From: Candidatus Levybacteria bacterium RIFCSPHIGHO2_01_FULL_41_15
Lineage (GTDB): Bacteria > Patescibacteriota > Microgenomatia > Levybacterales > UBA12049
DNA length: 64,000 nt
Assembly: GCA_001782165.1 (NCBI GenBank)
Contig: MFNV01000009.1
Coordinates: 56,123 to 120,122 of the forward strand
Direction: 5' to 3'
Each line of letters opens with the position of its first letter. Positions within the stretch are counted from its first letter, which is position 1. Positions 1,571 through 62,202 of the stretch are shown here, piece by piece. Both the position numbers and the translations under genes were made by a program. The notes under the pieces were generated by a model. It had not been told where the DNA came from. It ran no database searches and was given only the letters and a program-made list of their open reading frames with translations.

Positions 1571-3508
1571 CTAGTTGACTACTTCGCCTTCAACAGGTTC
1601 TTCTGGTTGGTCTTCCGATTTTGATTCTGATTTTTTCTCATCTGTTTTTTCTTCACCATCTCCTGTAGTCTGTTGACTGTTGTCGGTTGGCTGTTGACTG
1701 CCTTGTGGTGAACCTGTCGAACTATACATTGCTTGCCCGACTTTCTGGAGTGAATCCGATAAATCTTTGGTCTTTGTTTCCAAATCTTCTTTAGTCCCCG
1801 TATCAAGAACTGATTTAAGGTCAGAAATTTTATCCTCAACTTCTTTTTTAAGAGTCGGGTCAACCTTATCTCCGGCATCCTTAAGCGTCTTTTCTGCTGT
1901 AAAGATCAGTGAGTCAGCAGCGTTTCTTGTCTCAACTTGTTCTTTTTTCTCTTGATCTTCCTTTGCATGTTCTTCTGCTTGTTTTGTCATTGTCTCAACT
2001 TCTTCGCGTGTCAAGCCGGTTGAGCCTGTTATCTTAATACTTTGCTCTTTACCAGTTGCCTTGTCTTGTGCCTTAACATTTAATATTCCATTTGCATCGA
2101 TATCAAAAGTAACTTCAATTTGGGGAACACCACGAGGCGCAGGAGGAATACCGTCTAGAATAAATCTTCCAAGAGATTTGTTATCTTGTACCATTGGCCT
2201 TTCTCCTTGAAGAACATTTATTTCAACCTGTGTCTGATTATCCGCCGCTGTTGAAAAAACTTGTGATTTGGAACTTGGGATAGTTGTATTCCTAGCAATT
2301 AAAGGTGTTGATACCCCTCCTAAAGTTTCTATTCCCAGAGTCAAAGGCGTAACATCCAAAAGTAAGACATCTTTCACTTCTCCTCCTAACACTCCACCTT
2401 GAATAGCTGCTCCGACTGCAACAACTTCATCCGGGTTAACCGATTTATTTGGCTCATTGTTGAAGAATTTTGTAACGGTTTCGGTTACTTTTGGCATTCT
2501 TGTCATGCCACCAACCAAAACTACTTCGTCAACGTCTGATACTTTAATCCCCGCATCTTTTAGGGCAGCTTCGACTGGTTTGACAGTTTTTTGAATTAAA
2601 CCATCAACAATCTGCTCAAGTTTTGAGCGATTTAAAGTCATTGTAAGATGCAAAGGACTTTCTTTCCCTTGAGTTATAAATGGCTGGTTGATTTGAGTTT
2701 CTTGGGCGCTTGATAATTCAATCTTTGCTTTTTCCGCTGCTTCCCTAAGTCTCTGGAGTGCCTGATGATCGCGCCTTAGATCGACTCCGTTTTCTTTTTT
2801 AAATTCTTCGGCAATATAATTTACTATCACTTGGTCAAAGTCGTCTCCACCAAGATGTGTGTCTCCATTGGTTGATTTTACCTCGTATACTCCTTCTCCA
2901 AGCTCAAGAATTGAGATGTCAAAAGTTCCACCGCCCAAATCATAAACAGCAATTGTATGAGCATTTTTCTTATCAAGGCCATAGGAAAGAGCTGCTGCTG
3001 TTGGTTCGTTAATTATTCGAAGAACTTCAAGTCCTGCAATTTCCCCTGCCTGTTTTGTTGCTTGACGCTGGCTATCATCAAAATAGGCTGGAACTGTAAT
3101 AACCGCTTGTGTGACTTTACCGCCCAAATAGGCCTCGGCATCCGATTTAATTTTCTGAAGAATTTGGGCTGAGATTTCCTGGGGAGTAAATGTTCTTCCC
3201 TCAACTTCAACAACTGCCATCCCGTCGCGACCTGCCTTCACTGCATAGGGGAGCCATTTAATATCGTACTGAACCGACTCGTCTTTAAATTTTCTGCCCA
3301 TTAGTCTTTTTATCGAAAAGATTGTTCTTTTTGGCTTTAAAACAAGCTGGCGTTTGGCAACATCTCCCACAACATGAGAAATCGGATCAACCACTGATGG
3401 GATAACATTTCGTCCCTCTCTTGAATGAATAACCTTGGGGTTTCCCCCTTCCATTACTGCAACTGCCGAATTTGTTGTACCTAAATCTATTCCTATTATT
3501 TTTCCCAT
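1571..3508 (-). CDS. dnaK: Molecular chaperone DnaK (Hsp70)
   Basis: N-terminus '[18 protein letters not shown]', with 'DLGGGTFD' and other Hsp70 signatures. 645 aa. Confidence 0.97.
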
Positions 3509-4006: not shown

Positions 4007-4056
4007 TTTTCATTCTCAATTGTCAATTGTAAATAGTCAATTGTCAATTTGTTAAC

Positions 4057-5609: not shown

Positions 5610-7064
5610 ATGGACAAACCAAATAAATTTTATATTACGAACGCGATTCCTTATGTCAATGCAAAGCCCCACATCGGACATGCCATGGAGTTTGTGCAGT
5701 CGGATACCATTGCAAGATTTCATAGGCAGATGGGAGAAGACGTTCTTCTTCTTTGCGGTTCTGATGAAAATGCTTTAAAAAATGTTCAGGCCGCAGAAGA
5801 AGAAAAGATTTCTGTGCAGGAACTGGTTGATAAAAATAGCAAGCTTTTTGAAGACCTTGCAAGAAAATTGAATGTTCAATTTGATATTTTTCAAAGAGGA
5901 AGTGACCCAAATCATCATAAATCCTCACAAAAATTGTGGGAACTTTGTTTTAAAAGCGGGGATATCTATAAAAAACAATACACTGGACTCTATTGCGTTG
6001 GTTGTGAACTATTTTATGAAAAGAATGAGCTGAATGAAAAAAGCGAATGTTTCGAACACCCTGGAAAAAAACTTGAGAAGGTTTCAGAGGAAAATTACTT
6101 TTTCAAACTTTCTAAATACCAAGCTGAAATAGGAAAGATTATTAAATCTGATCAAATACAAATTACCCCTGAAAACCGAAAAAAAGAGGTTCTTAATTTT
6201 ATAAAACAGGGCCTTAAGGACATAAGCATATCAAGATCCAACAAGAGAGCCAAAAACTGGGGAGTTTCTGTTCCAAATGATCCGACTCAAAAAATGTATG
6301 TTTGGTTTGATGCTTTAAACATTTATCAAAGCGGAACGGGATTTGCACTAGATGATAAAAAATATAAAAAATGGTGGCCTTGCGACCTTCATGTTATAGG
6401 AAAAGGAATCTTAAGATTTCATGCCATTTACTGGCCTGCTTTTCTTCTATCTGCCGGTCTTGCCCTTCCTAAGAAAATTTTTGTACATGAGTACATAACT
6501 GTAAATGGACAAAAGATGTCAAAAACCTTAGGAAATGTGATCGATCCTCTAAGTTTGATCGAAAAGTATGGCACCGATCCCCTACGTTATTATTTCTTGC
6601 GTCACATATCGCCTTTTGTAGACGGTGATTTTTCGGAAGACAAATTTAAAAAAGTTTATAATTCCGATTTGGCAAACGGGCTTGGAAATCTTATCTCAAG
6701 AGTTTCAAAACTTTGCGAAAATTCTAATTATATTCAGATGGGGTCTGCCTTACGAATTTCGGAGCACTTAATACAAATTGAGGAATACTCAAAGGCAATG
6801 CTCGAGTTTCGTTTTAATGACGCTTTATCTTTTGTTTTTAGAAAAATCGCAGATTTAGATAAATTTATTAACAATGAAAGGCCGTGGGATTTGCTTAAAA
6901 ATGAGGACAGTAGATTAAAATCAATACTTGCTCATTCAGTCGATCAGATTCAGGAAATCGCAGCTCTTTTAGAACCGTTTCTTTCTGAAACCGCCAAAAA
7001 AATCGAAAACCAATTCCAAGGACCAGAAATAGTTTCTCAAAAGCCACTATTTCCGAGAATCTAA
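5610..7064 (+). CDS. metG: Methionyl-tRNA synthetase (class I aaRS, short form)
   Basis: 'PHIGHAME' (HIGH motif), 'KMSKTLGN' (KMSKS motif) and the MetRS anticodon-binding region. Confidence 0.92.
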   Translation: MDKPNKFYITNAIPYVNAKPHIGHAMEFVQSDTIARFHRQMGEDVLLLCGSDENALKNVQAAEEEKISVQELVDKNSKLFEDLARKLNVQFDIFQRGSDPNHHKSSQKLWELCFKSGDIYKKQYTGLYCVGCELFYEKNELNEKSECFEHPGKKLEKVSEENYFFKLSKYQAEIGKIIKSDQIQITPENRKKEVLNFIKQGLKDISISRSNKRAKNWGVSVPNDPTQKMYVWFDALNIYQSGTGFALDDKKYKKWWPCDLHVIGKGILRFHAIYWPAFLLSAGLALPKKIFVHEYITVNGQKMSKTLGNVIDPLSLIEKYGTDPLRYYFLRHISPFVDGDFSEDKFKKVYNSDLANGLGNLISRVSKLCENSNYIQMGSALRISEHLIQIEEYSKAMLEFRFNDALSFVFRKIADLDKFINNERPWDLLKNEDSRLKSILAHSVDQIQEIAALLEPFLSETAKKIENQFQGPEIVSQKPLFPRI

Positions 7065-7100
7065 AGTTTGAATTCTGAATTTTAAATTCTAAATTTTTCT

Positions 7101-14704: not shown

Positions 14705-14795
14705 AGGAGATAAAAATCATTATAGCAGAACAAGGGTTTTTCGAGGGACTATTTTATTTAAACTAATCGCTAATTGCTAGTTGCTAATGGCTAAC

Positions 14796-16469: not shown

Positions 16470-16769
16470 CTATTCTAAAATAGCAAGGATGTCTTTCTGC
16501 TCGACAATTGTCCATTCCTCATTACCAACCTTAACATCAGATCCGCCCCATTTTTTATACATAACTTTTTGTCCAACTTTAACCGTCATTGGGATAAGTT
16601 TTCTCTCATCGTCTCTTGCTCCTTCGCCGACAGCCATGATCTTGCCTGTTTGGGGTTTTTCCTTTGCGGTATCTGGAAGAATTATACCGCTTGCGGTTTT
16701 ATCCTCTGTCTCAAGCGGTTTTATAAGAACATTGTCAAAAAGCGGTTTTATTTTTATTTTACTTGCCAT
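16470..16769 (-). CDS. groES: Co-chaperonin GroES
   Basis: 99 aa, 'IKPLFDNVLIKPLE…'. Lies upstream of groEL. Confidence 0.95.
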   Translation of the reverse strand: MASKIKIKPLFDNVLIKPLETEDKTASGIILPDTAKEKPQTGKIMAVGEGARDDERKLIPMTVKVGQKVMYKKWGGSDVKVGNEEWTIVEQKDILAILE

Positions 16770-16835
16770 AACTAAAAATTACTGACCAAAAAAACCTGCC
16801 CGCCATCGGCATTTGCCGAAGGCATTGCAGGCGGG

Positions 16836-16862
16836 TATCACTTGATAAAAGTGATTGCTAAA
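16836..16862 (-). promoter_or_regulatory. Degenerate CIRCE-like operator in the groESL leader
   Basis: Minus strand TTAGCAATC-ACTTTTATC-AAGTGATA, placed immediately downstream of a TTGACA-N17-TATAAAT promoter. Confidence 0.5.
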
Positions 16863-16891
16863 TTTATACAACAAAATGCTTTTTGTGTCAA
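16862..16891 (-). promoter_or_regulatory. groESL sigma-70-type promoter (TTGACA-17-TATAAAT)
   Basis: The reverse complement of plus 16886-16891 is TTGACA, followed by a 17-nt spacer, and the reverse complement of plus 16862-16868 is TATAAAT. Confidence 0.55.
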
Positions 16892-16912
16892 TAACCTATA
16901 GTATAGCACCCT

Positions 16913-17941
16913 TCAGTCGCTCTTCAAAAATTGTAATTCCTTTTTTATTTTTTGGGTCAGTCTATAACTATCTGCGTGATTTAGAAAGCCTAAATAAGCT
17001 GCTATGCTTTGATTAAGCGAGTACTGTAAAATTTTGCCACTCCTGAAATCTTCAATCTTATTTTCTATCTTTTTAAATATTCTATTTCTGGTTTTTGTAC
17101 AAGGCAGAATATGATGTGGTAAAACTATGTATCCTAAGAAATCAATTCCCTGGTTATATTTTCTAATTATTATTTTCTTTGAATGTAAGTCAAGGTTAAG
17201 ATTGTCTCTTAGAAACATTGTAATTATACTAATATACTTGGACAATTTTTTTAAATCTGGATCTAGAATTATAAAATCATCTGCATAACGAATATAATAT
17301 TTAACCTTTAATTTTTGTTTCACAAATTGATCTAGCTCATTAAGATATATATTTGCAAAAAGCTGACTTGTGAGATTTCCTATGGGAATTCCTCTTTCCT
17401 TTGAAAAACTCTTTAGAATATTTTCTAAAAGCCAAGTGAGATTCCCATCTTTTATTTTTCTTTTTATAATCGAAAGAAGAATTGCGTGATCAACGCTTTC
17501 AAAAAACTTTTTAATGTCAAGTTTTAAGACAAAGCAATCTTGTTTGTAATTCTTACTTACTTTCCTTATTAATTTGGAGAGTCTTTTAACAGCTCTGTGA
17601 GTTCCTTTATTAAGTCTGCAGGAATAAGAATCGTAGATAAAAATCTGATCAAAAATAGGTTCAAGGATAGATACTATAGCATGGTGAACTATTCTATCGC
17701 GCACTTGCGCTTTATGGATATGGCGGAATTTAGGATCGTAAATGTTAAAAGCCGTATATTTACCATGTCTGTAATTCCCGCTTTTTAATTTTTTATGAAG
17801 TCCAAAAAGATTATCCTCAAGATTTATTTCAAAAAATCGTACATCTTTCTTTCTTCTTTTGTCTTTCTTAAATTCATCCCATGCTTGAAATAAATTTTCT
17901 ATTGATATAATCTTTAGATAGAGGGTATGAAAAACTTTCAC
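16913..17941 (-). CDS. DGR reverse transcriptase
   Basis: RT motifs 'RDRIVHHAI', 'FVLKLDIKKFFESVDH', 'GIPIGNLTSQLFANIYLNELD' (IGxxxSQ, DGR-specific rather than QGxxxSP) and 'YIRYADDFIIL' (YADD). 342 aa. Confidence 0.85.
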   Translation of the reverse strand: MKVFHTLYLKIISIENLFQAWDEFKKDKRRKKDVRFFEINLEDNLFGLHKKLKSGNYRHGKYTAFNIYDPKFRHIHKAQVRDRIVHHAIVSILEPIFDQIFIYDSYSCRLNKGTHRAVKRLSKLIRKVSKNYKQDCFVLKLDIKKFFESVDHAILLSIIKRKIKDGNLTWLLENILKSFSKERGIPIGNLTSQLFANIYLNELDQFVKQKLKVKYYIRYADDFIILDPDLKKLSKYISIITMFLRDNLNLDLHSKKIIIRKYNQGIDFLGYIVLPHHILPCTKTRNRIFKKIENKIEDFRSGKILQYSLNQSIAAYLGFLNHADSYRLTQKIKKELQFLKSD

Positions 17942-17953
17942 GGCACAAAATTA

Positions 17954-17988
17954 GGACAGGACAGGACAGGACAGGACAGGACAGGACA
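17954..17988. repeat. (GGACA)x7 pentanucleotide microsatellite in the divergent RT/avd promoter region
   Basis: Seven perfect tandem copies, 13-47 nt upstream of the RT start codon. Confidence 0.9.
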
Positions 17989-18041
17989 GTAGTGAGTTTA
18001 ACATACCAATTTTCCAGAAACTTTACGATTTCTACAAATTA

Positions 18042-18332
18042 TTGTACCAATATTTAAAACTGTTTCCTCAGAAAGACCGTTATACTCTCGGGCAGAAAAT
18101 AGATAATCTTTCATTAACAATTTTTGAGATGGTAATTACGGCAGGGGCAATATCAAAAGAAAAAAAGCTTCCATATCTTGAAAAATCCATAGCTACATTA
18201 AATCTCCTGAAAATACTTATAAGACTTGCGAAGGATGTTAGGGCTTTGGACAATAAAAAATATTTAGAACTTCAAGAAAACCTCCAAGAAATTGGAAAAA
18301 TGCTTGGAGGATGGAAAAAATCTCTCCTATAA
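18042..18332 (+). CDS. avd: Accessory variability determinant (Avd-like four-helix-bundle protein)
   Basis: 96 aa with a TTG start. Segments 'LFPQKDRYTLGQKIDNLSLTIFEMVITAG' and '…LQEIGKMLGGWKKSL' parallel Bordetella phage bAvd ('…IAQSIPRKHGVAREMFL…VGRILGSWI'). Divergent to the RT. Confidence 0.65.
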   Translation: MYQYLKLFPQKDRYTLGQKIDNLSLTIFEMVITAGAISKEKKLPYLEKSIATLNLLKILIRLAKDVRALDNKKYLELQENLQEIGKMLGGWKKSLL

Positions 18333-18348
18333 ATAAGGAGATGCAAGG

Positions 18349-18475
18349 CACTTCCTCAGAGCGACCGCCCCAATTCGGATTGTGATTCTGCGGATTCAGA
18401 TCCCGATTGACATTCAGGTTGCCATTCGGATTGCAGTTGGCATTGACCACCTTACCGTCATTGCGCGACCCCAGC
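18349..18475 (-). repeat. DGR template repeat (TR); adenine-bearing strand is the minus strand
   Basis: 127 nt, identical to the VR except at 15 positions, all of which are T on the plus strand (A on the minus strand) in this copy. Its minus-strand translation is Asn-rich (NANCNPNGNLNVN…, AAY codons). Confidence 0.85.
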
Positions 18476-18792
18476 TTTGTTTTGTCCTATGCCATCTTTC
18501 TTTATCACCATGGTTTTTCTTTTAAATGGAATCACCATTGAATTTTATCTGGAAGAAGTCCCGATTTAATCGGAGACACCTTCACCAGCACAGAACAAGA
18601 AGTGTCTTGCTTTTCTTGCGTACTCTTTCAAAAACCTTAATTTTTGAAATTCTGACACAGAGTTGAAAAACAACAATTTCGGCGATCCCAATCCTTGAAT
18701 CGGGATTCATTAACCTACTCTCTTTGCTATAATAGCAGAAAAATAAAAAGTTTAAAAAATTTAAGAAGAATAAAGTATTAAAGGATTAAGTT

Positions 18793-19608
18793 TTATAACA
18801 CTTCCTCAGAGCGACCGCCCCAATCCGGATGGCGATTCTGCGGATACAGACCCCGAAAGACATACAGGTAGCCATACGGATAGCAGTAGGCATAGACCAC
18901 CCTACCGTCAATGCGCGACCCCAGCAGACGTGACCATGTAGAACCTTGGTCAAGATAGTTACCATCTAGAACTTCCATTTGTCTTGAGAAAATAGCATAA
19001 GTTATGAGTCTCTGTCCTCTTGTCCCCTGCAACTCAAAATGTTTCCTAAGTTGGTCTTCGTTTGTGTCAAGGTTTGGGGAATCAATGACACCTTCAACTC
19101 TAATATACCCCGTTCTATCAAACTCATCTTCTATTGGGGTGCCTTCTCGGACACTGTAGTTTTCCAATTCGGGGAACATCTTACCAAGCGTTATGAGACC
19201 TTCTTTTCCCTTAAGTTCTTCTGGTATACCGATTGTAAACGGGGAGAGTTCTATTCCCTTGATGTCGGCAAAAGGTTTTTTTAATCGTTCTTCAGTTGCG
19301 CTGCATGGTGCAATATCAAAAGTGAGACCTTCTTCTCCTCTTGGAACTTGCCAAAAAGCCTTTTGGAAGTTGGTAACTTTCTCAGGACTAAAGGGATTTC
19401 TGTTGAGTTCTTGAGCCGCTCGTCTCAGAAGATCTAGGGGGTCAGGTGGGTAAGACTCTACTTTTTCTTTTTCTCCTTTGCCTTCAGGTAGCGGAACATC
19501 AGAAATACCATGCTTATCTAAAAGCTCCTGTCTTAAGCCAGAAATTGCCCTAGCAATTCCTTTTATCCCCATTCTACTTAGTTCTCTTTCTGCATGTCTT
19601 AGTGACAT
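18793..19608 (-). CDS. DGR target protein (271 aa) with C-terminal variable region (putative C-type-lectin/FGE-like ligand-binding fold)
   Basis: The C-terminal 42 codons are the VR and encode a Tyr-rich segment '…VVYAYCYPYGYLYVFRGLYPQNRHPDWGGRSEEVL'. No signal peptide. The N-terminal domain is unassigned. Confidence 0.75.
   Translation of the reverse strand: MSLRHAERELSRMGIKGIARAISGLRQELLDKHGISDVPLPEGKGEKEKVESYPPDPLDLLRRAAQELNRNPFSPEKVTNFQKAFWQVPRGEEGLTFDIAPCSATEERLKKPFADIKGIELSPFTIGIPEELKGKEGLITLGKMFPELENYSVREGTPIEDEFDRTGYIRVEGVIDSPNLDTNEDQLRKHFELQGTRGQRLITYAIFSRQMEVLDGNYLDQGSTWSRLLGSRIDGRVVYAYCYPYGYLYVFRGLYPQNRHPDWGGRSEEVL
18799..18925 (-). repeat. DGR variable repeat (VR) with a GC-rich IMH-like 3' end
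   Basis: Direct repeat of the TR. The 3' 23 nt (coding-strand GGGGCGGTCGCTCTGAGGAAGTG) are identical between TR and VR, and all mismatches fall at TR adenines. Confidence 0.85.
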
Positions 19609-19732
19609 AGGGTTGGTTTATATCATACTATAAGTTGACTTGTCAATAACCTATAGTAGAAACGTGTCGGCTTCAATCTAATCGGGGTTGACATAACTTT
19701 CTTTCTTTTGTACGATAAATTCAGGTCAAAAT

Positions 19733-20872
19733 ATGTCATTATCGCCAAGACGTCTTATCCTCGTAGGTTTGGCAGTTATTCTCCTTATTGCAATCCCTCT
19801 TACTATTTATCTTGTTCAGAAACAGCAGGAATTAAGAGGAAGAGCCGCTCCTTCAACTACGCTCTCTGTTATGCCGGCAACTAAAACTGCGGCAGTCGGA
19901 CAAACAGTAAGCTTTGATATTGTAGTAAATCCGGGAACAAATCTTGTATCTGTATTGACTTTGGTTATAAATTACGATTCCACCAAACTTGAAACAGGCG
20001 CTTCTGCTTTTGTCAAAAATACAGAGCGGCCCCTAGATCTTATAGGAGATCCTGTCTATACTCCCGGAACGATAACGGCAAATCTTTCAACAGGGATAGA
20101 CACCACCAATGCTATAACTTCCCAAACTACCCTGGCTACAATAACCTTCAAAGCCCTTGCGACAACTGGATCAATTCCGACAGAGATCACCTTTGATCAA
20201 ACCAAGAGTCTTGTTTATCCTTTGGGAGCAGAAGAAAACCTTAATGTACTTAAAACCGTTAATCCTGCACGTTTAACTATAACCGGAGACTCAGCCATTA
20301 CTCCTACTCCAACTCCAACTCCCACGTCAACTCCCACTCCCACTCCAAGCCCAATACCAATCCCTACAATAAGTTCACCCACGCCGACATCTGCTCCGGG
20401 AGGAGGAGGACCGGTCAACCAAAACCCTGTTTGCTCAAGTCTTGTCCTTGACAGATCGTCCTCGGGAACTGCCCCCTATTCCCTGACATTCACGGCTTCT
20501 GGGACCGACTCTGATGGCACGATTACAAAAGTAAACTTTAGTTTTGGAGATGGGACAGTGCAAGATATAACGCAAGGGGGGGGAATAGGAACAAATACTG
20601 TAAATGCCCAAGTCTCTCATATTTATAATACAGCCGGGACATTTACAACGTCGGCAACCCTGACAGACAACAGCGGCGCAACCAGTAACTCTGTAACATG
20701 CAGTCAGACAATTACAGTAATCGCAGGAGGCACAGGAGGAACATCTCCTCCTGTTTTAGCAACACCTACTCCTACAATTGAGCCTTCGGGACCTTCGGAA
20801 ACCATAGTCGGAATAGGACTAATTGGAATACTTCTTACGATAATAGGAGGGGTAATTCTTCTTGCTCTTTAA
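19733..20872 (+). CDS. Cell-surface protein: N-terminal signal/anchor, beta-sandwich domain, PT-rich linker, PKD-like domain, C-terminal TM anchor
   Basis: 'TPTPTPTPTSTPTPTPSP' linker, a PKD-like 'VNFSFGDGT…HIYNTAGTFT' segment, and C-terminal 'PSGPSETIVGIGLIGILLTIIGGVILLAL'. Confidence 0.65.
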   Translation: MSLSPRRLILVGLAVILLIAIPLTIYLVQKQQELRGRAAPSTTLSVMPATKTAAVGQTVSFDIVVNPGTNLVSVLTLVINYDSTKLETGASAFVKNTERPLDLIGDPVYTPGTITANLSTGIDTTNAITSQTTLATITFKALATTGSIPTEITFDQTKSLVYPLGAEENLNVLKTVNPARLTITGDSAITPTPTPTPTSTPTPTPSPIPIPTISSPTPTSAPGGGGPVNQNPVCSSLVLDRSSSGTAPYSLTFTASGTDSDGTITKVNFSFGDGTVQDITQGGGIGTNTVNAQVSHIYNTAGTFTTSATLTDNSGATSNSVTCSQTITVIAGGTGGTSPPVLATPTPTIEPSGPSETIVGIGLIGILLTIIGGVILLAL

Positions 20873-22708
20873 TTAAATCTTAAGAACTGCCAGGAAGGCT
20901 TCTTGGGGGATTTCTACTTGACCAAATCTTTTCATCCGCTTTTTTCCTTTTTTCTGCTTTTCTAAAAGCTTCGTTTTTCTTGTAACATCTCCTCCGTACA
21001 ATTTTGCCGTTACGTCTTTTCGATAAGCAGGGATTGTCTCTCGTGCCAAAATTTTTCCACCAATCCCCCCTTTTATTTTCGCGTAATTAATAACAGCCTG
21101 TATGGGAATCGGAATATTTTGACGGGGGATTTCTTCTTTAAGTTTTGCAACAAGTTTTCTTCCGAATTCATCTGCTTTTTCAGTCGGAATCACCTGAGAT
21201 AAACCTTCAACCGGCTCGTAATTTACAAGAATATCAAGCTTTACCAGTTTGGCCGGACGGTAATCTAAAATTTCAAAATCAAAAGAAGCATACCCGGATG
21301 TTTTAGATTTTAAGTCATCATAATAACCTATCAATATCTCAAGAAGAGGAATAACTGCTTCAATCTTTTGAGATGCTCCTATGCTTTCGGAGTTTTCAAT
21401 TGTCCCCCGTTTACTGTAAACCAACTCATTTATTTGTCCGAAATATTTTTGGGGAGCGAAGATCGTAATCTTCGCATACGGCTCCTTTATCTGAGACTGT
21501 GGGCTTGGACTAAATTCGGAAGGCTTATTGATGATTTTTCCGTCAATAATAAAGTTAACGGAAGGTGAGGCAGCGATAATATCAAGACCGTACTCACGCT
21601 CAAGTCTTTCCTGTGTAATCTGAGCATGCAGAAGTCCAAGAAAGCCTACGCGAAGACCTTGTCCTAAACTTATTGAGGATTCGGGAGAATAGGAAAGCGC
21701 AGCGTCATTGAGTTTTAATTTTTCAAATGCTTCTTTAAGCTTTGGGAAATCTCTGGAATCTGTTGGGAAAAAGGATAAAAACACAACTGGCCTTGGGTTC
21801 TGGTACCCCGGAAGAGGGAGGGCAGGATTTTTTTCCTGAGTTATTGTATCGCCTACATTGACAACTGATAAATCCTTTATATTTGTGACAATAAAACCTA
21901 CTTCTCCTTCCTTTAACTCCTGAGTATAGTAAGGCTTGGGAGTAAGAAAGCCCGCCTGCAAAACATTTCCTTTTGCCTTTGTTGCAAGAAAAGAAATTTC
22001 ATCTCCTACTCTTAGTGATCCGCCGAAAAGCCTAACTGTTGCAACTACTCCTTTATAAGGATCAAGGCTTGAGTCAAAAATCAATACAGAGAGATTAGAG
22101 TCAAGAGTCAAAGATTCGGGAGGAGGAATTTTTTTGACAATTTCATCTAAAAGATTTTTTACATTTTCTCCGGTCTTTGCTGAAACCTTTATTATCTCCT
22201 CTTCTTTAAATCCCAAATCCATAAGTTCAAAAATTGTCTTTTCGATATTTGCAGAAGGCATGTCGATTTTATTGACAATAGGAATAAGGGTAAGGTTGGC
22301 ATTCATTGCAAGATTGAAATTCGAAAGAGTTTGAGCCTGAATTCCCTGTGTCGCATCAACAACTAATATCGCTCCTTCAACAGAGGCAAGAGATCTTGAA
22401 ACTTCGTAGGAAAAATCAACATGCCCGGGAGTATCTATTAAATTTAGAATGTATAATTCAGAATCTATAATTTTTTTATTTTCATTCTGAACTCTAAATT
22501 CTGAACTCTGAATTCTGTATTGGAGTCTTATTGCTTTAAGTTTAATAGTAATCCCGTGTTCTCTCTCAAGCTCAAGACTGTCCAAAATCTGCTCCTCATG
22601 TTTCTGGGGAATGGCACCGCAAATTTCCATGATTCGGTCAGCAAGTGTTGACTTCCCGTGATCAATATGCGCTACAATCGCAAAATTCCGAATGTGATTC
22701 TGATCCAT
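20873..22708 (-). CDS. lepA: Translation elongation factor 4 (LepA)
   Basis: 'IRNFAIVAHIDHGKSTLADR' G-domain and the LepA C-terminal domain. Contains an insertion encoded by a 14-mer tandem repeat. Confidence 0.95.
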   Translation of the reverse strand: MDQNHIRNFAIVAHIDHGKSTLADRIMEICGAIPQKHEEQILDSLELEREHGITIKLKAIRLQYRIQSSEFRVQNENKKIIDSELYILNLIDTPGHVDFSYEVSRSLASVEGAILVVDATQGIQAQTLSNFNLAMNANLTLIPIVNKIDMPSANIEKTIFELMDLGFKEEEIIKVSAKTGENVKNLLDEIVKKIPPPESLTLDSNLSVLIFDSSLDPYKGVVATVRLFGGSLRVGDEISFLATKAKGNVLQAGFLTPKPYYTQELKEGEVGFIVTNIKDLSVVNVGDTITQEKNPALPLPGYQNPRPVVFLSFFPTDSRDFPKLKEAFEKLKLNDAALSYSPESSISLGQGLRVGFLGLLHAQITQERLEREYGLDIIAASPSVNFIIDGKIINKPSEFSPSPQSQIKEPYAKITIFAPQKYFGQINELVYSKRGTIENSESIGASQKIEAVIPLLEILIGYYDDLKSKTSGYASFDFEILDYRPAKLVKLDILVNYEPVEGLSQVIPTEKADEFGRKLVAKLKEEIPRQNIPIPIQAVINYAKIKGGIGGKILARETIPAYRKDVTAKLYGGDVTRKTKLLEKQKKGKKRMKRFGQVEIPQEAFLAVLKI

Positions 22709-33435: not shown

Positions 33436-34138
33436 TCTTTATAATTTCTACGAATTCTCGTGGATCAAGACTCGCCTGTCCTACTAACGCACCCTCTATG
33501 TTTGGCTGGGAGAAAAAAGAGGCAACATTGTCTGAATTTACACTTCCACCATATAGAATTTTTATTTCCCCAATCCGTTCTTTTATTTTACCAGCATACA
33601 AATTTGAATCTTCCGGAGAATCAGGTTTGTATTCTCCTCCGCCGCTAATCGCATCGGGGGGCTCATAAACAAACAATATTTCCTCAGATCTTCCTATAAT
33701 TTGTCTTCCTCTATTAACATAAGAGTCCAATTGTGACAAATCGCTAATACAAAGAATGGGCATGATTTTGTATTCCAAAAGAAGCTTTATTTTTTCAATA
33801 ACATCATCATCGTTCTCATTAAAATATTTCCTTCTTTCAGAATGACCAACAATACAATACTTAACTAATCCGCTTATCATTTGTGCTGTTACTTCTCCTG
33901 TATAAGCTCCTTCTCTAAATTTAGAAACATTCTGAGCGCCAAGCTTGAATGGCAATTTATGATTTACAATATATGATTTAAGATTTGGAAGAAGAGTAAA
34001 CGAGGGACAAAGTATGATTTCTTTATATTCTATATGTGATATTTGATATTTGATATTTGATATTTCCTCAAGCCATTCCTCTGCCTCATTGATTGTTTTG
34101 TTGGATTTCCAGTTAGCTATAATAAAAAGTTTTTTCAT
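33428..34138 (-). CDS. tpiA: Triosephosphate isomerase
   Basis: 'IIANWKSN', 'IVGHSERR' and 'YEPP…AIGGG'. Contains an in-frame (TGATATT)x4 repeat. Confidence 0.9.
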   Translation of the reverse strand: MKKLFIIANWKSNKTINEAEEWLEEISNIKYQISHIEYKEIILCPSFTLLPNLKSYIVNHKLPFKLGAQNVSKFREGAYTGEVTAQMISGLVKYCIVGHSERRKYFNENDDDVIEKIKLLLEYKIMPILCISDLSQLDSYVNRGRQIIGRSEEILFVYEPPDAISGGGEYKPDSPEDSNLYAGKIKERIGEIKILYGGSVNSDNVASFFSQPNIEGALVGQASLDPREFVEIIKNA

Positions 34139-36090: not shown

Positions 36091-37106
36091 AGCCTCAGGA
36101 TTTTAACAAAAACGTGAATCACCCGCTCCAAAGCTACGAATGGGGGAAATTCAGAGAAAAAACAGGCATTAAAGTTATAAGAGGCGGTGATTTTCAACTT
36201 ACAATTCATAAAATTCCCTATCTTCCGTGGACTATTGGTTATCTGCCAAAAGGAAAGTTGCCCGATAAAAAACTTGTCGAAGAACTTAAAAAAATCGGTA
36301 AAGAAAATCACTGCATCTTGATCCAACTCGAGCCAAATGTTGAGAAAATTTCAAATTTAAAATTTCAAATTTCAAATTTAGGCATGGTGCCTGCAGCGCA
36401 TCCTCTCTTTACAAAATATACTTTCATTCTAGATCTCACAAAGAGTGAAGATGAATTGTTAAAAGTAATGCATCCTAAGACCCGTTACAACATAAAAGTA
36501 GCACTTAAACACGGAGTCGAAGTTATTGAGTATGATTCAGATGAAGCTTTTAAAGCTTATTTAAAATTAACCGAGGAAACTACCAGAAGACAAAAATTCT
36601 ACGCCCACACTCAAGATTACCATAAAAAAATGTGGGAGATTTTGAAATCTGAAAATGGAAAATCAATGATAAATGATAAATGGAAAATGGAAAATTTTAA
36701 TCGCTTAACTGCCTATTTGCTACTTGCGAAATATCGAAAAACGAAGAACAAAAAACCAATAACTTTAGTCGCTTGGATCTTGTTTACCTTCAAAGACACT
36801 CTCTACTATCCTTACGGCGCGTCATCAACTGAACATCGAGAAACAATGGCAAGTAATCTTATGATGTGGGAAACAATAAGATTTGGTAAAAAACTGGGTC
36901 TTGCGAAATTTGACATGTGGGGAGCGTTAGGGTCCGACCCTGATCCAAAAGACCCTTGGTACGGCTTCAATAAATTTAAACAAGGCTATGGCGGAAAACC
37001 CGTAGAATTTGTGGGAAGTTATGATTTAGTTATCAATCCTGTCTTATATAATCTTTATAAAGTAGCCAACAAAATCAGATGGGCTATTCTAAAATTTAAA
37101 AAATAG
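36087..37106 (+). CDS. FemAB-family peptidoglycan interpeptide-bridge aminoacyltransferase-like protein
   Basis: 339 aa with FemABX-like conserved blocks ('YEWGKF…', 'WETIRFGKKLG…FDMWG'). Confidence 0.6.
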   Translation: MKPQDFNKNVNHPLQSYEWGKFREKTGIKVIRGGDFQLTIHKIPYLPWTIGYLPKGKLPDKKLVEELKKIGKENHCILIQLEPNVEKISNLKFQISNLGMVPAAHPLFTKYTFILDLTKSEDELLKVMHPKTRYNIKVALKHGVEVIEYDSDEAFKAYLKLTEETTRRQKFYAHTQDYHKKMWEILKSENGKSMINDKWKMENFNRLTAYLLLAKYRKTKNKKPITLVAWILFTFKDTLYYPYGASSTEHRETMASNLMMWETIRFGKKLGLAKFDMWGALGSDPDPKDPWYGFNKFKQGYGGKPVEFVGSYDLVINPVLYNLYKVANKIRWAILKFKK

Positions 37107-37350: not shown

Positions 37351-37863
37351 TTAGAATTTGTAAAGAAACAGATTATCCTTAATCCTTGATTCATAATTCT
37401 TAATTCCTAATTCATACTTACGACTCACGATCCTTGTTCCTTTTTTTAATTCTTTCTTAAACTTTGGCAAAAGTTTTTCAAGAGCTTTGGGGACAAGATA
37501 AACTACTACAACCGTTGCCTTTGATAAATCGGTCTTGAAAAAATCTTCCTGTCTTATCTCAACTTTATTTAGTAGATTATTAAACCAAACCCTAATTCTT
37601 GCTATCCAAACTCGCAGAGGATCAATCTCTATTCCAACCCCCTTAGCCCCAAACTCTTTTGCTGCTGTTATAAGAAATGTTCCGTCTCCGCATCCGAGAT
37701 CATAAACAAGGTCTGACCTTGTAATCTTGGCCAATTTACAAATCTCTCTTGCAATTTTTCTATTTGTTCTCCACCACGGCGCCCATGGGCTGTCCGGCGG
37801 CCAAACCGCAGATAAAATTAATAGCAGAAAAATAATTATCAATAATAAGATCAGTTCAAGCAT
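37351..37863 (-). CDS. Class I SAM-dependent methyltransferase with N-terminal TM helix
   Basis: 'VYDLGCGDGTFLITAA' (motif I) and 'VVVVYLVP' (motif II-like). Confidence 0.72.
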   Translation of the reverse strand: MLELILLLIIIFLLLILSAVWPPDSPWAPWWRTNRKIAREICKLAKITRSDLVYDLGCGDGTFLITAAKEFGAKGVGIEIDPLRVWIARIRVWFNNLLNKVEIRQEDFFKTDLSKATVVVVYLVPKALEKLLPKFKKELKKGTRIVSRKYELGIKNYESRIKDNLFLYKF

Positions 37864-38282: not shown

Positions 38283-38390
38283 GCTTCTTAATTTTCAATT
38301 TGAAATTTGAAATTTGAAATCAATTTTGAATGCTTTAAATTTAAAAAATTTAGATTTGAATGAAAATTAGAAATTAAAAATTTAAAATTA

Positions 38391-55342: not shown

Positions 55343-56938
55343 ATGCTGGCAAAGGTGAATTCCAGTGCGATTGTCGGACTTGATGCAGTGCCGATTGAGG
55401 TTGAAGTTGATATTGCCTCACAAGGACTGCCTTCTTTCACGATAGTGGGGCTTCCGGATAAGGCTGTTGAAGAATCAAAAGAGAGAGTAAGATCTGCTAT
55501 TAAAAACTCAGGGGCTGACTTTCCTGCCAAAAGAATAACTGTCAATCTTGCACCTGCCGATCTTCCAAAAGAAGGACCTTCCTATGATCTTCCTATAGCA
55601 ATAGGAATTCTTCTTGCAAATGGTCAATTTGAGGCCGATATTTCCGATGCTCTGTTTATAGGAGAGCTTGCTTTAGATGGTAGACTTAGGCATACCAACG
55701 GTATTTTATCCCAGATAATAATGGCAAAAAATAGAAGAATTAAAAGAGTTTTTATTCCCGAAAAAGATGTAAAAGAAGCTTCAATTTTGACGGGTATCAA
55801 GATTTATCCTGCCGACAATCTTATTTCTCTTCTTAAACATTTCTCAGGCGAAGAAGAGATTGCACCTGCAAAAAATATTAATATAGATTCCCTATCAAAA
55901 GACGTTTCGTTTGACTTTGATATGGCAGATGTCAAAGGGCAGGAGCAGGCAAAAAGGGCTTTTGAAATTGCAGCAGCAGGTGCTCACAATATTTTAATTA
56001 AAGGCCCGCCGGGCTCTGGAAAAACAATGCTTGCCCGAACGCTTCCCTCCATTCTACCCCGTCTTACTTTTGATGAAGCTTTGGAAGCAACCCGAATCTA
56101 TAGCATCTCAGGGCTTTTAGACAACAACGCTCTCATAATTAAAAGGCCTTTCCGCGCACCGCACCATACGACTTCTCATGTAGGACTTATAGGCGGAGGA
56201 ACATATCCTAAGCCTGGAGAAATTTCTCTTGCCCACCGCGGCGTTTTATTTTTGGATGAGTTTCCTGAATTCCCCCGCTTCGTCCTTGAGGCTTTAAGAC
56301 AACCAATGGAAGATGGGATTATAACAATTTCAAGATCATCAGGCCGGCTTAAATTCCCTGCCAAATTCATGTTGGTTGCCGCACAGAATCCATGCCCGTG
56401 TGGCTATCTTGGGGACAAGTCAAATAAATGCAAGTGTTTATACAGTCAAATTATCAAATATCAAAAGAGGGTCTCGGGACCTCTTCTTGATAGGATTGAC
56501 ATTCATCTTGAAATCCAGCCGGTTAGAACTGATAAACTAACGGCAGATGATAAAAGCCTGCCCGCCCACCAGCGGGTAAAAACCTCAAAAGAAATCCAAA
56601 AGAAGGTACAGAATGCTAGAGATATCCAGCTTAAAAGATTTAAAAGCAACTTGTCTGCTCGCCTCGCGGCGGAGCGGACCGGCAGGCAGGGAAAAATTAC
56701 TTCAAATTCCGAAATGTCAACAAGAGACATAAAGGAACTTTGCAAGCTATCCGAAGAGTGTTTGGAAATTTTAAGGCTTGCGGTTGCGCGCATGAGCCTT
56801 TCGGCAAGATCTTATTATAAAACTATTAAGCTTGCCCGGACAATTGCAGATTTAGAAGAGATAAAAGAAATAAAACCTGTTCATGTCGCAGAAGCTCTGC
56901 AGTATAGACCAAGGCAAGAAACAACAATCAGTTATTAG
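55343..56938 (+). CDS. comM: YifB/ComM Mg-chelatase-like AAA+ ATPase
   Basis: ChlI-like AAA+ ATPase with Walker A 'GPPGSGKTM'. Typical family length (531 aa). Confidence 0.9.
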   Translation: MLAKVNSSAIVGLDAVPIEVEVDIASQGLPSFTIVGLPDKAVEESKERVRSAIKNSGADFPAKRITVNLAPADLPKEGPSYDLPIAIGILLANGQFEADISDALFIGELALDGRLRHTNGILSQIIMAKNRRIKRVFIPEKDVKEASILTGIKIYPADNLISLLKHFSGEEEIAPAKNINIDSLSKDVSFDFDMADVKGQEQAKRAFEIAAAGAHNILIKGPPGSGKTMLARTLPSILPRLTFDEALEATRIYSISGLLDNNALIIKRPFRAPHHTTSHVGLIGGGTYPKPGEISLAHRGVLFLDEFPEFPRFVLEALRQPMEDGIITISRSSGRLKFPAKFMLVAAQNPCPCGYLGDKSNKCKCLYSQIIKYQKRVSGPLLDRIDIHLEIQPVRTDKLTADDKSLPAHQRVKTSKEIQKKVQNARDIQLKRFKSNLSARLAAERTGRQGKITSNSEMSTRDIKELCKLSEECLEILRLAVARMSLSARSYYKTIKLARTIADLEEIKEIKPVHVAEALQYRPRQETTISY

Positions 56939-56967
56939 TTATTCGTTGTTAGTTATTAGTTTGAATT

Positions 56968-61049: not shown

Positions 61050-61147
61050 AATTTTAAATTTTTAATTCTTAATTTTTATTGAATTTTTAATGTTTTAAGT
61101 TTTAAAATTTAGATTTTATTTAAAATTTCAAATTTCAAATTCTAAAT

Positions 61148-61723
61148 TTACTTGCCAAGGTATTTCAATGCAAGCCTTATCTTCTCTTCAACACTCTCTA
61201 TCTTCTTGTCAATATTTTTGAGGGCTTCCCCTGCTTCTTTTGAAGAAAACCCAAAACTTTTAAGAACAGCTAAAACTTCTTTTGCTTCCCCGTCTCCCTC
61301 TTGTAATAAATCGAGCTCCTCAAGGCTTCCTACTTTACTCTTAAGTTCGATTATTAATTTTTGTGCATTCTTGGTCCCAAGACGAGGAATTGCTGTAAAG
61401 AAAGAGACATCTGCTTTGGCAATTGCAGATATTATTGAGTCTCTATTCCCAAAGGAGAAAATGTTTACTGCGATACGAGGTCCGATTCCTGAAACTCCTA
61501 TTATTTGTTCAAACAGTTTTAAATCTAAAGGATCGGAAAATCCGAAGAGCTCTAAAGCATCTTCCCGAACATGAGTATAGGTATAGACTTCGATTTCTTG
61601 ATTAATTTTTGCTTTTCCCAAAACCTCAGACGGTACAGTCACCTTATATCCTACGCCTTGCGTATCAATCACAATTGAAGCATTGTCAAAATACTTTACT
61701 TTTCCTTTTATAAAACCGATCAT
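61148..61723 (-). CDS. ruvA: Holliday junction DNA helicase RuvA
   Basis: 'MIGFIKGKV…GVGYKV', HhH 'GIGPRIA'. Confidence 0.9.
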   Translation of the reverse strand: MIGFIKGKVKYFDNASIVIDTQGVGYKVTVPSEVLGKAKINQEIEVYTYTHVREDALELFGFSDPLDLKLFEQIIGVSGIGPRIAVNIFSFGNRDSIISAIAKADVSFFTAIPRLGTKNAQKLIIELKSKVGSLEELDLLQEGDGEAKEVLAVLKSFGFSSKEAGEALKNIDKKIESVEEKIRLALKYLGK

Positions 61724-62202
61724 AAGCTTAATCTTTTGTTCGAAAAAAGATATGTTAGTCCGACAGCCAGTGCGTCCGCGGTATCATCGGGTTTTGGGAC
61801 AGAATTTAAGTTTAAAATTGTTTTTACCATTTTCCCCATTTGTGCTTTTTCTGCTCTTCCATAGCCCGTCACTGCGATTTTAACCTGAAGAGGAGTGTAG
61901 ATTGCAAGAGGTATGTTTTTTTCTGCTCCTGCAAGAAGAATTACTCCTCGTGCTTGTCCTACAATAAAAGCAGTCTTTGCATTGGTATTGAAAAAAAGCT
62001 CTTCAATTGCCATCGAATCTGGCGAATATTTTTCAATAAGTTTTAATATTTCGCTATAGATTTTTTTGAGCCGGTACTCTACATCATCCTTTGAACTCGT
62101 CTCAATGCACCCGAAGTTTTGACTTTTGACTTTTGACTTTTGACTTTCGATTACTCCCCATCCTGTTCTTGCAATTCCTGGATCAATACCCAAAACCCGC
62201 AT
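61720..62202 (-). CDS. ruvC: Crossover junction endodeoxyribonuclease RuvC
   Basis: 'MRVLGIDPGIARTGWGVIE'. Contains an in-frame (TTTTGAC)x4 repeat insertion. Confidence 0.9.
   Translation of the reverse strand: MRVLGIDPGIARTGWGVIESQKSKVKSQNFGCIETSSKDDVEYRLKKIYSEILKLIEKYSPDSMAIEELFFNTNAKTAFIVGQARGVILLAGAEKNIPLAIYTPLQVKIAVTGYGRAEKAQMGKMVKTILNLNSVPKPDDTADALAVGLTYLFSNKRLSL

Follow-up and report, generated by a model that had tools for sequence, protein, structure and literature searches.

Diversity-generating retroelements (DGRs) of the candidate phyla radiation (CPR) have been surveyed well. Architecture B3, in which a template repeat (TR), the accessory gene avd and the reverse transcriptase (RT) follow one another as TR-(avd)-RT, makes up 90% of the CPR set of Wu et al. 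2018 (PMC5758913), and Roux et al. 2021 described a Patescibacteria-restricted DGR clade (clade 2) whose targets are typically without transmembrane or known domains, and in which they expect new variants of the lectin fold (PMC8144416). The locus considered here lies at positions 16913-19608 of a 64-kb stretch of a 'Candidatus Levybacteria' genome (RIFCSPHIGHO2_01_FULL_41_15, contig MFNV01000009.1), a stretch referred to below as the window; the variable repeat (VR), TR, leader, target gene and RT are on its minus strand and avd is on its plus strand. As a DGR the locus is a routine member of this known type and adds nothing to it. Its interest lies in a repeat that appears to gate avd and in an apparent structured leader RNA 5' of the TR, both of which draw on broad comparative evidence. 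We read the region as a complete, recently active chromosomal DGR of the CPR type, with a proposed separate leader-TR RNA and an avd gene switched by a (GACAG)n tract, and we put the probability of this reading at about 0.85.

The two repeats identify the element and its mode of change. A repeat search of the region gave a single 127-nt direct repeat pair, 18349-18475 and 18799-18925, the copies of which are 88% identical and differ at 15 positions. At all 15 the first copy has A on the minus strand, replaced in the second by T (ten sites), G (four sites) or C (one site), and with 33 adenines in 127 nt the hypergeometric probability of this outcome is 8.9e-11. The initial annotation had taken 18349..18475 (minus strand) as the TR and 18799..18925 (minus strand) as the VR on the same ground, and both its coordinates and its counts hold; a search of the 64-kb window with adenines masked found no third copy. 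The VR forms codons 230-270 of the target gene. Twelve AAY codons for Asn were counted in the TR, in agreement with its earlier description as Asn-rich, and in the VR frame it translates to LGSRNDGKVVNANCNPNGNLNVNRDLNPQNHNPNWGGRSEEV, where the VR gives LGSRIDGRVVYAYCYPYGYLYVFRGLYPQNRHPDWGGRSEEV. Every one of the 15 changes falls on codon position 1 or 2, and the AAY design allows ~4e17 possible peptides. The GC-rich 3' end shared by the two copies had been likened in its position to an initiation of mutagenic homology (IMH) element; the ends of TR and VR are indeed invariant, their last 26 nt being identical.

Comparison of assemblies dates this activity. An independent assembly from ENA (L007) is the same as the window over 7816 nt except for 20 substitutions, all 20 of which lie between 18825 and 18912, within the VR and at TR-adenine sites. 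Its TR is identical to that of the window, and its VR departs from the TR at 18 positions, 18/18 of them adenines. With 0 changes outside the VR in 7.7 kb against 20 within 88 nt, the VR must have been rewritten very recently, and since L007 is otherwise identical the rewriting postdates the last common ancestor of the two genomes. Two further assemblies carry the VR allele of the window without any difference. Three full-length sequences in the 90% cluster of the target are unlike the window protein: P0021 has one change outside the VR, while P0022 and P0024 differ in the VR only, P0024 representing a third VR allele. When the alleles are combined, 23 of the 33 TR adenines vary; none of this variation touches the three in the last 9 nt. 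Population variation confined to TR-adenine positions had been anticipated from read mapping; it is seen here instead by comparing assemblies, and these sequences show the element to have been active recently, with the VR alleles of one strain differing only at TR-adenine sites.

The RT is a protein of 342 aa with a GTG start (16913..17941, minus strand) that contains IGNLTSQ as motif 4 and YADD, with coordinates as first annotated. It matches Pfam RVT_1 at 5.4e-25, and its best PDB match is 8ub7, the RT of phage BPP-1 (bRT), with an E value of 1.9e-46 over residues 8-329; the next best is a group II RT at 3.3e-20, and group II and retron RTs in general score ~1e-20. The IGNLTSQ of the window RT aligns with IGSLTSQ of bRT. 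NCBIfam gave no dedicated DGR-RT match, the best being a group II model at 150 bits, where the cutoff is 300. These alignments place the RT in the DGR clade, as had been expected of it. The body of avd (18003..18332, plus strand) encodes the conserved Avd sequence IPIFQKLYDFYK...GKMLGGWKKSLL and scores 69.2 bits against Pfam bAvd (PF22296; gathering threshold 40), which assigns it to the bAvd family; a sequence search of the PDB gave no match for Avd. The initial annotation had identified Avd in a 96-aa open reading frame at 18042..18332: the family assignment stood but the extent did not, as the conserved sequence begins at about 18003, where no canonical in-frame start is available.

The 5' end of avd is where the locus departs from a simple gene. 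In the avd frame there is no ATG, GTG or TTG between the preceding stop (17952) and TTG 18042, which is the first canonical in-frame start and falls inside helix 1. An in-frame start before the conserved N-terminal helix is lacking in the window as in L001 and L013, the gene being otherwise intact. The NCBI annotation A2958_00905 (P0176) resolves this with a 109-aa product starting at the ATA codon 18003. Other gene callers start avd at the internal TTG 18042 to give 96 aa, and many database Avd entries of 91-109 aa resemble the same truncated call. A candidate ATG start lies further upstream at 17927..17929 (plus strand), overlapping the RT N-terminus head to head, and between it and the avd body is a simple sequence repeat (SSR), (GACAG)7, at 17955..17989 (plus strand; Tandem Repeats Finder score 74, 100% matches). 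With seven units the ATG is out of frame with the avd body; simulation of the repeat number puts it in frame at 2, 5, 8 or 11 units. No other perfect tandem repeat in the window scores as high, and poly-T and (AT)n apart this tract is the only SSR there above thresholds. On the other strand it is part of the 5' untranslated region of the RT, whose start codon is 13 nt away.

Repeats at this position recur widely among related elements. Alignment of the RT gathered 80 related metagenome loci at 50-71% identity, and 74 of these have enough sequence upstream of the RT for a census; in all 74 avd is reversed and directly upstream of the RT. Forty of the 74 are free of a repeat, and most of those have an ATG 4-15 codons before the DIPIF motif. 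The other 34 carry a repeat at this spot, namely (CA)6-14, C9-11, (CAGA)8 or (GACAG)7, and in 34/34 an upstream ATG is present in one frame, often with the conserved peptide MHTDKDI. The ATG is in frame with the avd body (ON) in three of these 34 loci and out of frame (OFF) in 31, fewer ON than the expected one third, with a binomial P of 9e-4 if the loci are treated as independent, which these partly related loci are not fully. An SSR census at fixed thresholds over 423 kb of the related loci found 36 repeats, 33 of which sit at this one spot in avd. Length polymorphism is seen between otherwise identical sequences: L043 and L044 have (GT)7 and (GT)6 between flanks with 100% identity over 500 nt each, and L064 and L065 differ as G9 and G10.

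Protein databases contain the corresponding in-frame products. With the predicted in-frame Avd as query, 41 of the best 120 matches read through the repeat in the predicted frame, with GQDRT, HT, PPP or RQTD as the repeat-encoded peptide (for example MNNY..GQDRTGQDRTGQDRTG..FNIPIF, ..HTHTHT..DIPIF, ..PPP.. and ..RQTDRQTD..). P0175 is an Avd of 126 aa that is 87% identical to the query and starts MKNFHGTKLGQDSSEFNIPIF from the same ATG; the DNA that encodes it (L099), from a sister lineage 88% identical to the window, has (GACAG)2, an in-frame number. P0183 is an ON allele of the OFF locus L020, the two being 100% identical over residues 11-132, the avd body. What is conserved in the body is the protein sequence, with synonymous codons exchanged, such as CCA, CCG or CCT for the Pro of IPIF. 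All five assemblies of the window strain have seven units and are OFF, one of them with a base change inside the tract. Taken together these observations suggest that the (GACAG)n tract is a putative slipped-strand frame switch in avd, of which the window carries the OFF allele. Under this proposal avd would be translated from ATG 17927 only with 2, 5, 8 or 11 units and would be OFF at 7; in rare cells slipped-strand mispairing would turn on Avd and with it mutagenesis, and a return of Avd to OFF would fix a VR variant. The literature searched, to which Paul et al. 2017 does not belong, yielded no published link of DGRs or Avd to simple repeats or phase variation.

The second feature lies in the 323-nt spacer that separates VR and TR. 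Read in minus-strand order the element runs target with VR, spacer with leader, TR, avd on the opposite strand, and RT. Between the window and L001 the spacer contains long stretches of 100% DNA identity, where the flanking proteins are at 62-79% identity. The candidate leader RNA (18476..18722, minus strand) comprises ~230 nt immediately 5' of the TR, its putative 5' end being placed from a promoter-like site at 18729..18756 (minus strand) that is conserved in relatives: TTTAAA and, after 16 nt, an extended -10 TGcTATTAT. Predicted minus-strand helices within it are P1 (18685-18706), P2 (18618-18658), a long-range helix that joins 18587-18597 to 18483-18493, and P4 (18534-18538 with 18510-18514); the near-invariant sequence AUAAAAUUCA at ~18539-18548 appears to be single-stranded. 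An RNAalifold analysis of 44 non-redundant loci returned 41 pairs, 36 with compensatory changes. In this alignment 94.3% of cells are paired and the covariation score is 0.776, against 40-47% and 0.11-0.19 when the partners are slid by 1-3 columns, and 0/500 shuffles reached the observed values. Rfam gave no match at E<=1 over 16700-19800 on either strand, and the leader RNA was not found in the literature searched.

One segment of the leader appears to contact the template itself. The motif AAGCAAGACACUUCUUG at 18596..18612 (minus strand), just 5' of the long-range helix, is complementary to AGGAAGUGCCUUGC at 18343..18356 (minus strand), which consists of the last 8 nt of the TR and the next 6 nt downstream and lies within the never-mutated, IMH-like end. 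This pairing is retained in nearly all loci despite their differing sequences. The duplex energy of cognate partners is -10.85 kcal/mol, that of non-cognate partners -7.60 and that of the leader segment with its own TR interior -6.07, and 0/10000 permutations matched the distinction between cognate and non-cognate pairing. The three A's within the paired TR 3' end never vary, and the absence of mutation at adenines inside the duplex fits a duplex that places the initiation site. The comparative evidence thus points to a covarying structured leader that precedes the TR and pairs with its 3' end. Transcription from a promoter in the VR-TR spacer would yield a separate RNA of ~400 nt, in which the TR follows the 230-nt structured leader and precedes a short tail; this leader would fold into the covarying helices, one segment of it pairing with the TR 3' boundary, and the resulting duplex could position the start of the cDNA by analogy with the TR:spacer (TR:Sp) duplex of BPP-1. 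RT and Avd would then copy the TR with misincorporation opposite A, and the cDNA would replace the VR.

Where such an RNA would end is suggested by the sequences downstream of the TR. A strong bidirectional terminator is found in most relatives in which the gap between TR and avd is >=35 nt. In the window antisense avd begins 16 nt downstream of the TR, and a weak terminator-like hairpin with a T-run follows the TR directly (18323..18341, minus strand), overlapping the avd stop codon. In L034 and L081 the non-coding gap between TR and avd carries the complement of the MLGGW codons, as a 10-12-bp hairpin with a T-run. Further into antisense avd of the window, 39 nt after the TR, is an 8-bp inverted repeat, CCUCCAAG...CUUGGAGG (18281-18310, minus strand), which recurs in L001 and L013 and coincides with the LQE...LGG codons of Avd, so that coding constraint alone could explain it.

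The target gene (18793..19608, minus strand) encodes 271 aa, with a predicted helical N-terminal region and a predicted C-terminal domain of the C-type-lectin (CTL) fold that holds the VR. The protein shares 100% identity with A2958_00910, a hypothetical protein of 'Candidatus Levybacteria bacterium RIFCSPLOWO2_01_FULL_38', and matches nothing by sequence in Pfam, NCBIfam or the PDB. A word-indexed search gave 20 relatives and a profile search at least 495 cluster representatives, 135 of which were aligned; Pfam scans of these 135 members and a search of their profile against PDB sequences gave nothing meaningful. The alignment has a conserved framework, WSRLLGSR..G.V..A.....G.L.V......P......GGRSEEV, between the residues of which the columns of TR-adenine codons are hypervariable, and in the family as a whole the variable columns fall on TR-A codons. 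From the 20-sequence alignment AlphaFold produced a model too poor to use (predicted local distance difference test, pLDDT, 48.7), and from the 135-sequence alignment a model of pLDDT 95.7 and predicted template modelling score 0.83. In this model the C-terminal domain with the VR adopts a fold of the C-type-lectin or formylglycine-generating enzyme (FGE)-like kind, as the initial annotation had foreseen. The absence of a signal peptide that it reported was also borne out: neither signal peptide nor transmembrane segment was detected (maximum Kyte-Doolittle value 0.59), and 134 of the 135 aligned members have no hydrophobic segment, the single exception having such a stretch inside the VR. The target is cytoplasmic-looking. 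Its earlier description as a possible new target type was overstated, as targets without known domains are the published norm for CPR (PMC8144416) and the fold is as expected; the claim is weak, even though the family is large and without a Pfam model.

Relatives of the target are found both with and away from the other DGR genes. Among the loci gathered with the RT, only four have a target that can be aligned to that of the window. A profile search with the 20-sequence target alignment gave six genome loci, and RT and avd are adjacent only in L013; L017 has a 21-residue Avd-like match only, with no RT match, and the other four have neither RT nor avd within a flank of 5 kb or less. For P0020 and P0009 no RT is called within 6 kb. 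Target homologues with 32-60% identity and hypervariable-looking C-termini occur in Patescibacteria genomes (L004/L015, L006, L014, L016 and L018), where no RT, avd or TR lies within the examined flank of 5-6 kb or less. Such homologues may be orphans, or they may serve as remote targets for a DGR at another place in the same genome.

Several observations weigh against parts of the reading given at the outset. Against NCBIfam DivGenRetAVD (NF033474) the Avd scores 71.7 bits, below the equivalog cutoff of 80. A Foldseek search of the predicted target model against the PDB gave no significant match, and the fold assignment itself depends on that model. The leader-TR as a separate RNA, with its promoter, transcript ends and priming role, is read from sequence. 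The loci behind the ON and OFF count are not phylogenetically independent, in some poly-C loci a TTG at the conserved motif is a possible start, and the SSR, being part of the RT 5' untranslated region, may affect the RT in place of avd or in addition to it. The five assemblies of the window strain are all OFF, yet their VRs differ, which leaves three accounts: ON cells may be too few to show in consensus assemblies; Avd may be produced to some extent even so, through transcriptional slippage or a start at ATA or TTG 18042; or this RT may need less Avd than that of BPP-1. Transcriptional slippage is possible at the poly-C tracts. Programmed ribosomal frameshifting was considered unlikely, because the OFF alleles would need shifts in both directions. 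A rival account is an active DGR in which Avd starts at ATA 18003 or TTG 18042 and the repeat is no translational switch, serving as spacer or untranslated region with a possible influence on how strongly the divergent avd and RT are transcribed; this account has on its side the NCBI model, the 13 nt between repeat and RT start codon, the TTG of the poly-C loci and the differing VR alleles of 'OFF' assemblies. We hold it to be unlikely, though with appreciable weight. The Ile codon is ATT, ATA or ATC among the loci, and Thr (ACT) in L028, and is thus not a conserved initiator, on which ground an ATA start was rejected; TTG 18042 is CTG in L001. Repeat-free relatives start with an ATG a few codons before the motif, the ATG upstream of the repeat stands in exactly one frame in 34/34 with its encoded peptide conserved, many database Avds read through the repeat in that frame, and the same lineage occurs ON and OFF. 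A decaying DGR, its avd inactivated by a frameshift from repeat expansion and its TR/VR differences a record of past activity, would also account for the lack of an in-frame avd start in all five strain assemblies and for the 31 of 34 related SSR loci that are out of frame. This we consider very improbable, given the intact RT and TR, the protein-level conservation of the avd body with its synonymous changes, and the identity of L007 over 7.8 kb except at 20 TR-adenine sites of the VR; moreover, random decay would not give four repeat types at the same position with a conserved upstream ATG.

Two further explanations concern the repeats and the RNA. That the 127-nt pair is an ordinary duplication or a gene-conversion tract, for which the only support is that a direct repeat exists, is as good as ruled out by the mismatch spectrum: 15/15 mismatches in the window and 18/18 in L007 coincide with adenines of a single copy; this invariant copy does not code for protein but is rich in Asn when read in frame; genes for a DGR RT and Avd adjoin it; and the same pattern recurs in 55 related loci. 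The functional RNA elements might, on the other hand, lie downstream of the TR in antisense avd, as does the BPP-1 Sp, and the leader might be a promoter region, 5' untranslated region or stability element. In BPP-1 it is the spacer RNA downstream of the TR that primes cDNA synthesis, and a survey of other DGRs that took in 40 nt before and 100 nt after the TR reported that many of them, CPR ones included, have Avd-binding stem-loops on the downstream side (bioRxiv 10.1101/2023.10.23.563531). The 8-bp stem at 18281-18310, with its recurrence in L001 and L013, would agree with this arrangement, but given its coincidence with the LQE...LGG codons coding constraint by itself could account for it, and in most relatives with a gap >=35 nt a strong bidirectional terminator stands between TR and avd. 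The 36 covarying pairs of the leader go far beyond what a plain untranslated region would have, and a leader segment pairs specifically with the TR 3' boundary. We therefore regard functional elements confined to the downstream side as quite unlikely, and prefer the reading of a leader-TR RNA whose 5' part is the structured one.

The arrangement of the element is in part fixed and in part variable. A TR 3-80 nt from the avd 3' end together with an A-biased VR was found in 55 of the 80 related loci, besides the window and L013, and in one locus the TR overlaps the avd 3' end by a few nt. The VR is placed more variably: L098 has two VRs (2983-3102 and 5959-6079) for one TR, and the VR is on the strand opposite the TR in ten loci (L039, L040, L066, L069, L071, L072, L075, L078, L079 and L083), lying upstream of the TR in L075 and L078 and downstream of the RT in the other eight. 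This variation indicates that the target arrangement is fluid within the RT clade, while TR-(avd)-RT is fixed. The cassette is flanked by groES-groEL and, at its opposite end, by lepA together with a gene for a cohesin/PKD protein that has a membrane anchor, and the synteny is identical in a relative with 62% target identity, from which it follows that the element is chromosomal and vertically inherited. The gene that adjoins the target (19733-20872, plus strand) encodes a protein of 379 aa that combines cohesin and PKD domains with linkers rich in Thr and Pro and is anchored in the membrane at its N-terminus; the gene is syntenic with the DGR in L001-L003 and L007-L009. Within the lepA open reading frame (20873-22708) a tandem repeat of 14-nt period (22441-22517) falls in the N-terminal coding part, around ...IQSSEFRVQNENKK..., and looks like an insertion relative to the usual LepA. 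Elsewhere in the window are many short tandem arrays of 7-nt period, several exactly in intergenic gaps, which share the period but not the sequence (for example ATTGTCA x5, CTAATTG x4.6 and AATTTTA x14.7); they include 4012-4049, 7060-7097, 14763-14794, 34032-34065, 36346-36379, 37378-37413, 38297-38390, 56930-56961, 61050-61149 and 62117-62147.

A broader generalisation, on which we are evenly divided, is that avd serves as a contingency locus, mostly OFF and stochastically switched on, in a large clade of CPR DGRs, and that the RNA domain for cDNA initiation has moved 5' of the template, in a retron-like manner, as a new RNA family. If this is true, targeted hypermutation would be under the control of a random switch, and the persistence of useful VR variants would have an explanation. 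To the question of how a host restrains a DGR, so that a good variant is not at once overwritten, the avd repeat would give a concrete answer; frame-shifting repeats in about half of the 74 loci (34), with four repeat units and a strong excess of OFF, give this its breadth. The leader and its pairing with the TR 3' end would define the RNA needed to reconstitute a CPR DGR, which would be useful for the study of mechanism and for DGR-based mutagenesis tools, and they suggest that, where the B3 architecture is concerned, surveys confined to the downstream side of the TR have searched away from the relevant RNA. There is also a practical consequence for annotation, in that gene callers truncate or mis-start such avd genes, as NCBI does here with ATA.

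The closest described systems are the CPR DGRs of architecture B3 and clade 2, with which the locus shares the layout, a patescibacterial groundwater host and a target without transmembrane segment or known domain. The source genome, a 'Candidatus Levybacteria' genome from Rifle, belongs to the data set mined in those surveys, and at the level described there no difference was seen; the avd repeat and the leader RNA go unmentioned in the main texts, supplementary tables aside. With the layout already published and the data set already mined, the element is ordinary as a DGR. To the CTL/FGE-like variable proteins of other DGRs, such as TvpA of Treponema denticola, the target has no sequence similarity; it matches neither Pfam FGE-sulfatase nor DUF1566 and, unlike the TvpA type, is without a lipoprotein or secretion signal.

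BPP-1 (mtd-avd-TR-brt) shares with the window the RT clade, the IGxxxSQ motif, an Avd of the bAvd family, a TR of ~130 nt, TR-to-VR differences at adenines only and an invariant GC-rich 3' end common to TR and VR in the IMH position. It differs in several respects. The window avd is on the opposite strand, between TR and RT, and bears a frameshifting repeat; the RNA predicted to pair with the TR 3' end is upstream of the TR, whereas the BPP-1 Sp is downstream. The identity of the last 26 nt of TR and VR leaves no distinction of IMH and IMH* inside the repeat, and no GC-rich hairpin follows the VR. The window element is also chromosomal in a CPR bacterium, not carried by a phage, and its target is not a tail fibre.

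Simple-sequence contingency loci, such as the CTCTT repeats of Neisseria opa or the tetranucleotide repeats of Haemophilus, are the nearest counterpart of the avd tract. Like them, avd has a perfect tract just after a start codon, in which gain or loss of units would shift the frame, and its clade displays length polymorphism between otherwise identical sequences as well as ON and OFF alleles of one lineage. The host, however, is of the CPR, and the switching is deduced from sequences. The product of the gated gene is also of another kind: where the known loci govern surface antigens or restriction-modification enzymes, this one is an accessory protein for targeted hypermutation, so that one stochastic switch would control a second generator of diversity. 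For the leader the nearest counterpart is the msr-msd RNA of retrons, in which structured non-coding RNA precedes the template, whose 3' end is paired to a segment from the 5' side. The RT clade is a different one, no Rfam retron family is matched, and the product of the window element would replace a chromosomal VR; what the two would have in common is the topology alone, a priming region upstream of the part that is copied, as an analogy and not as membership.

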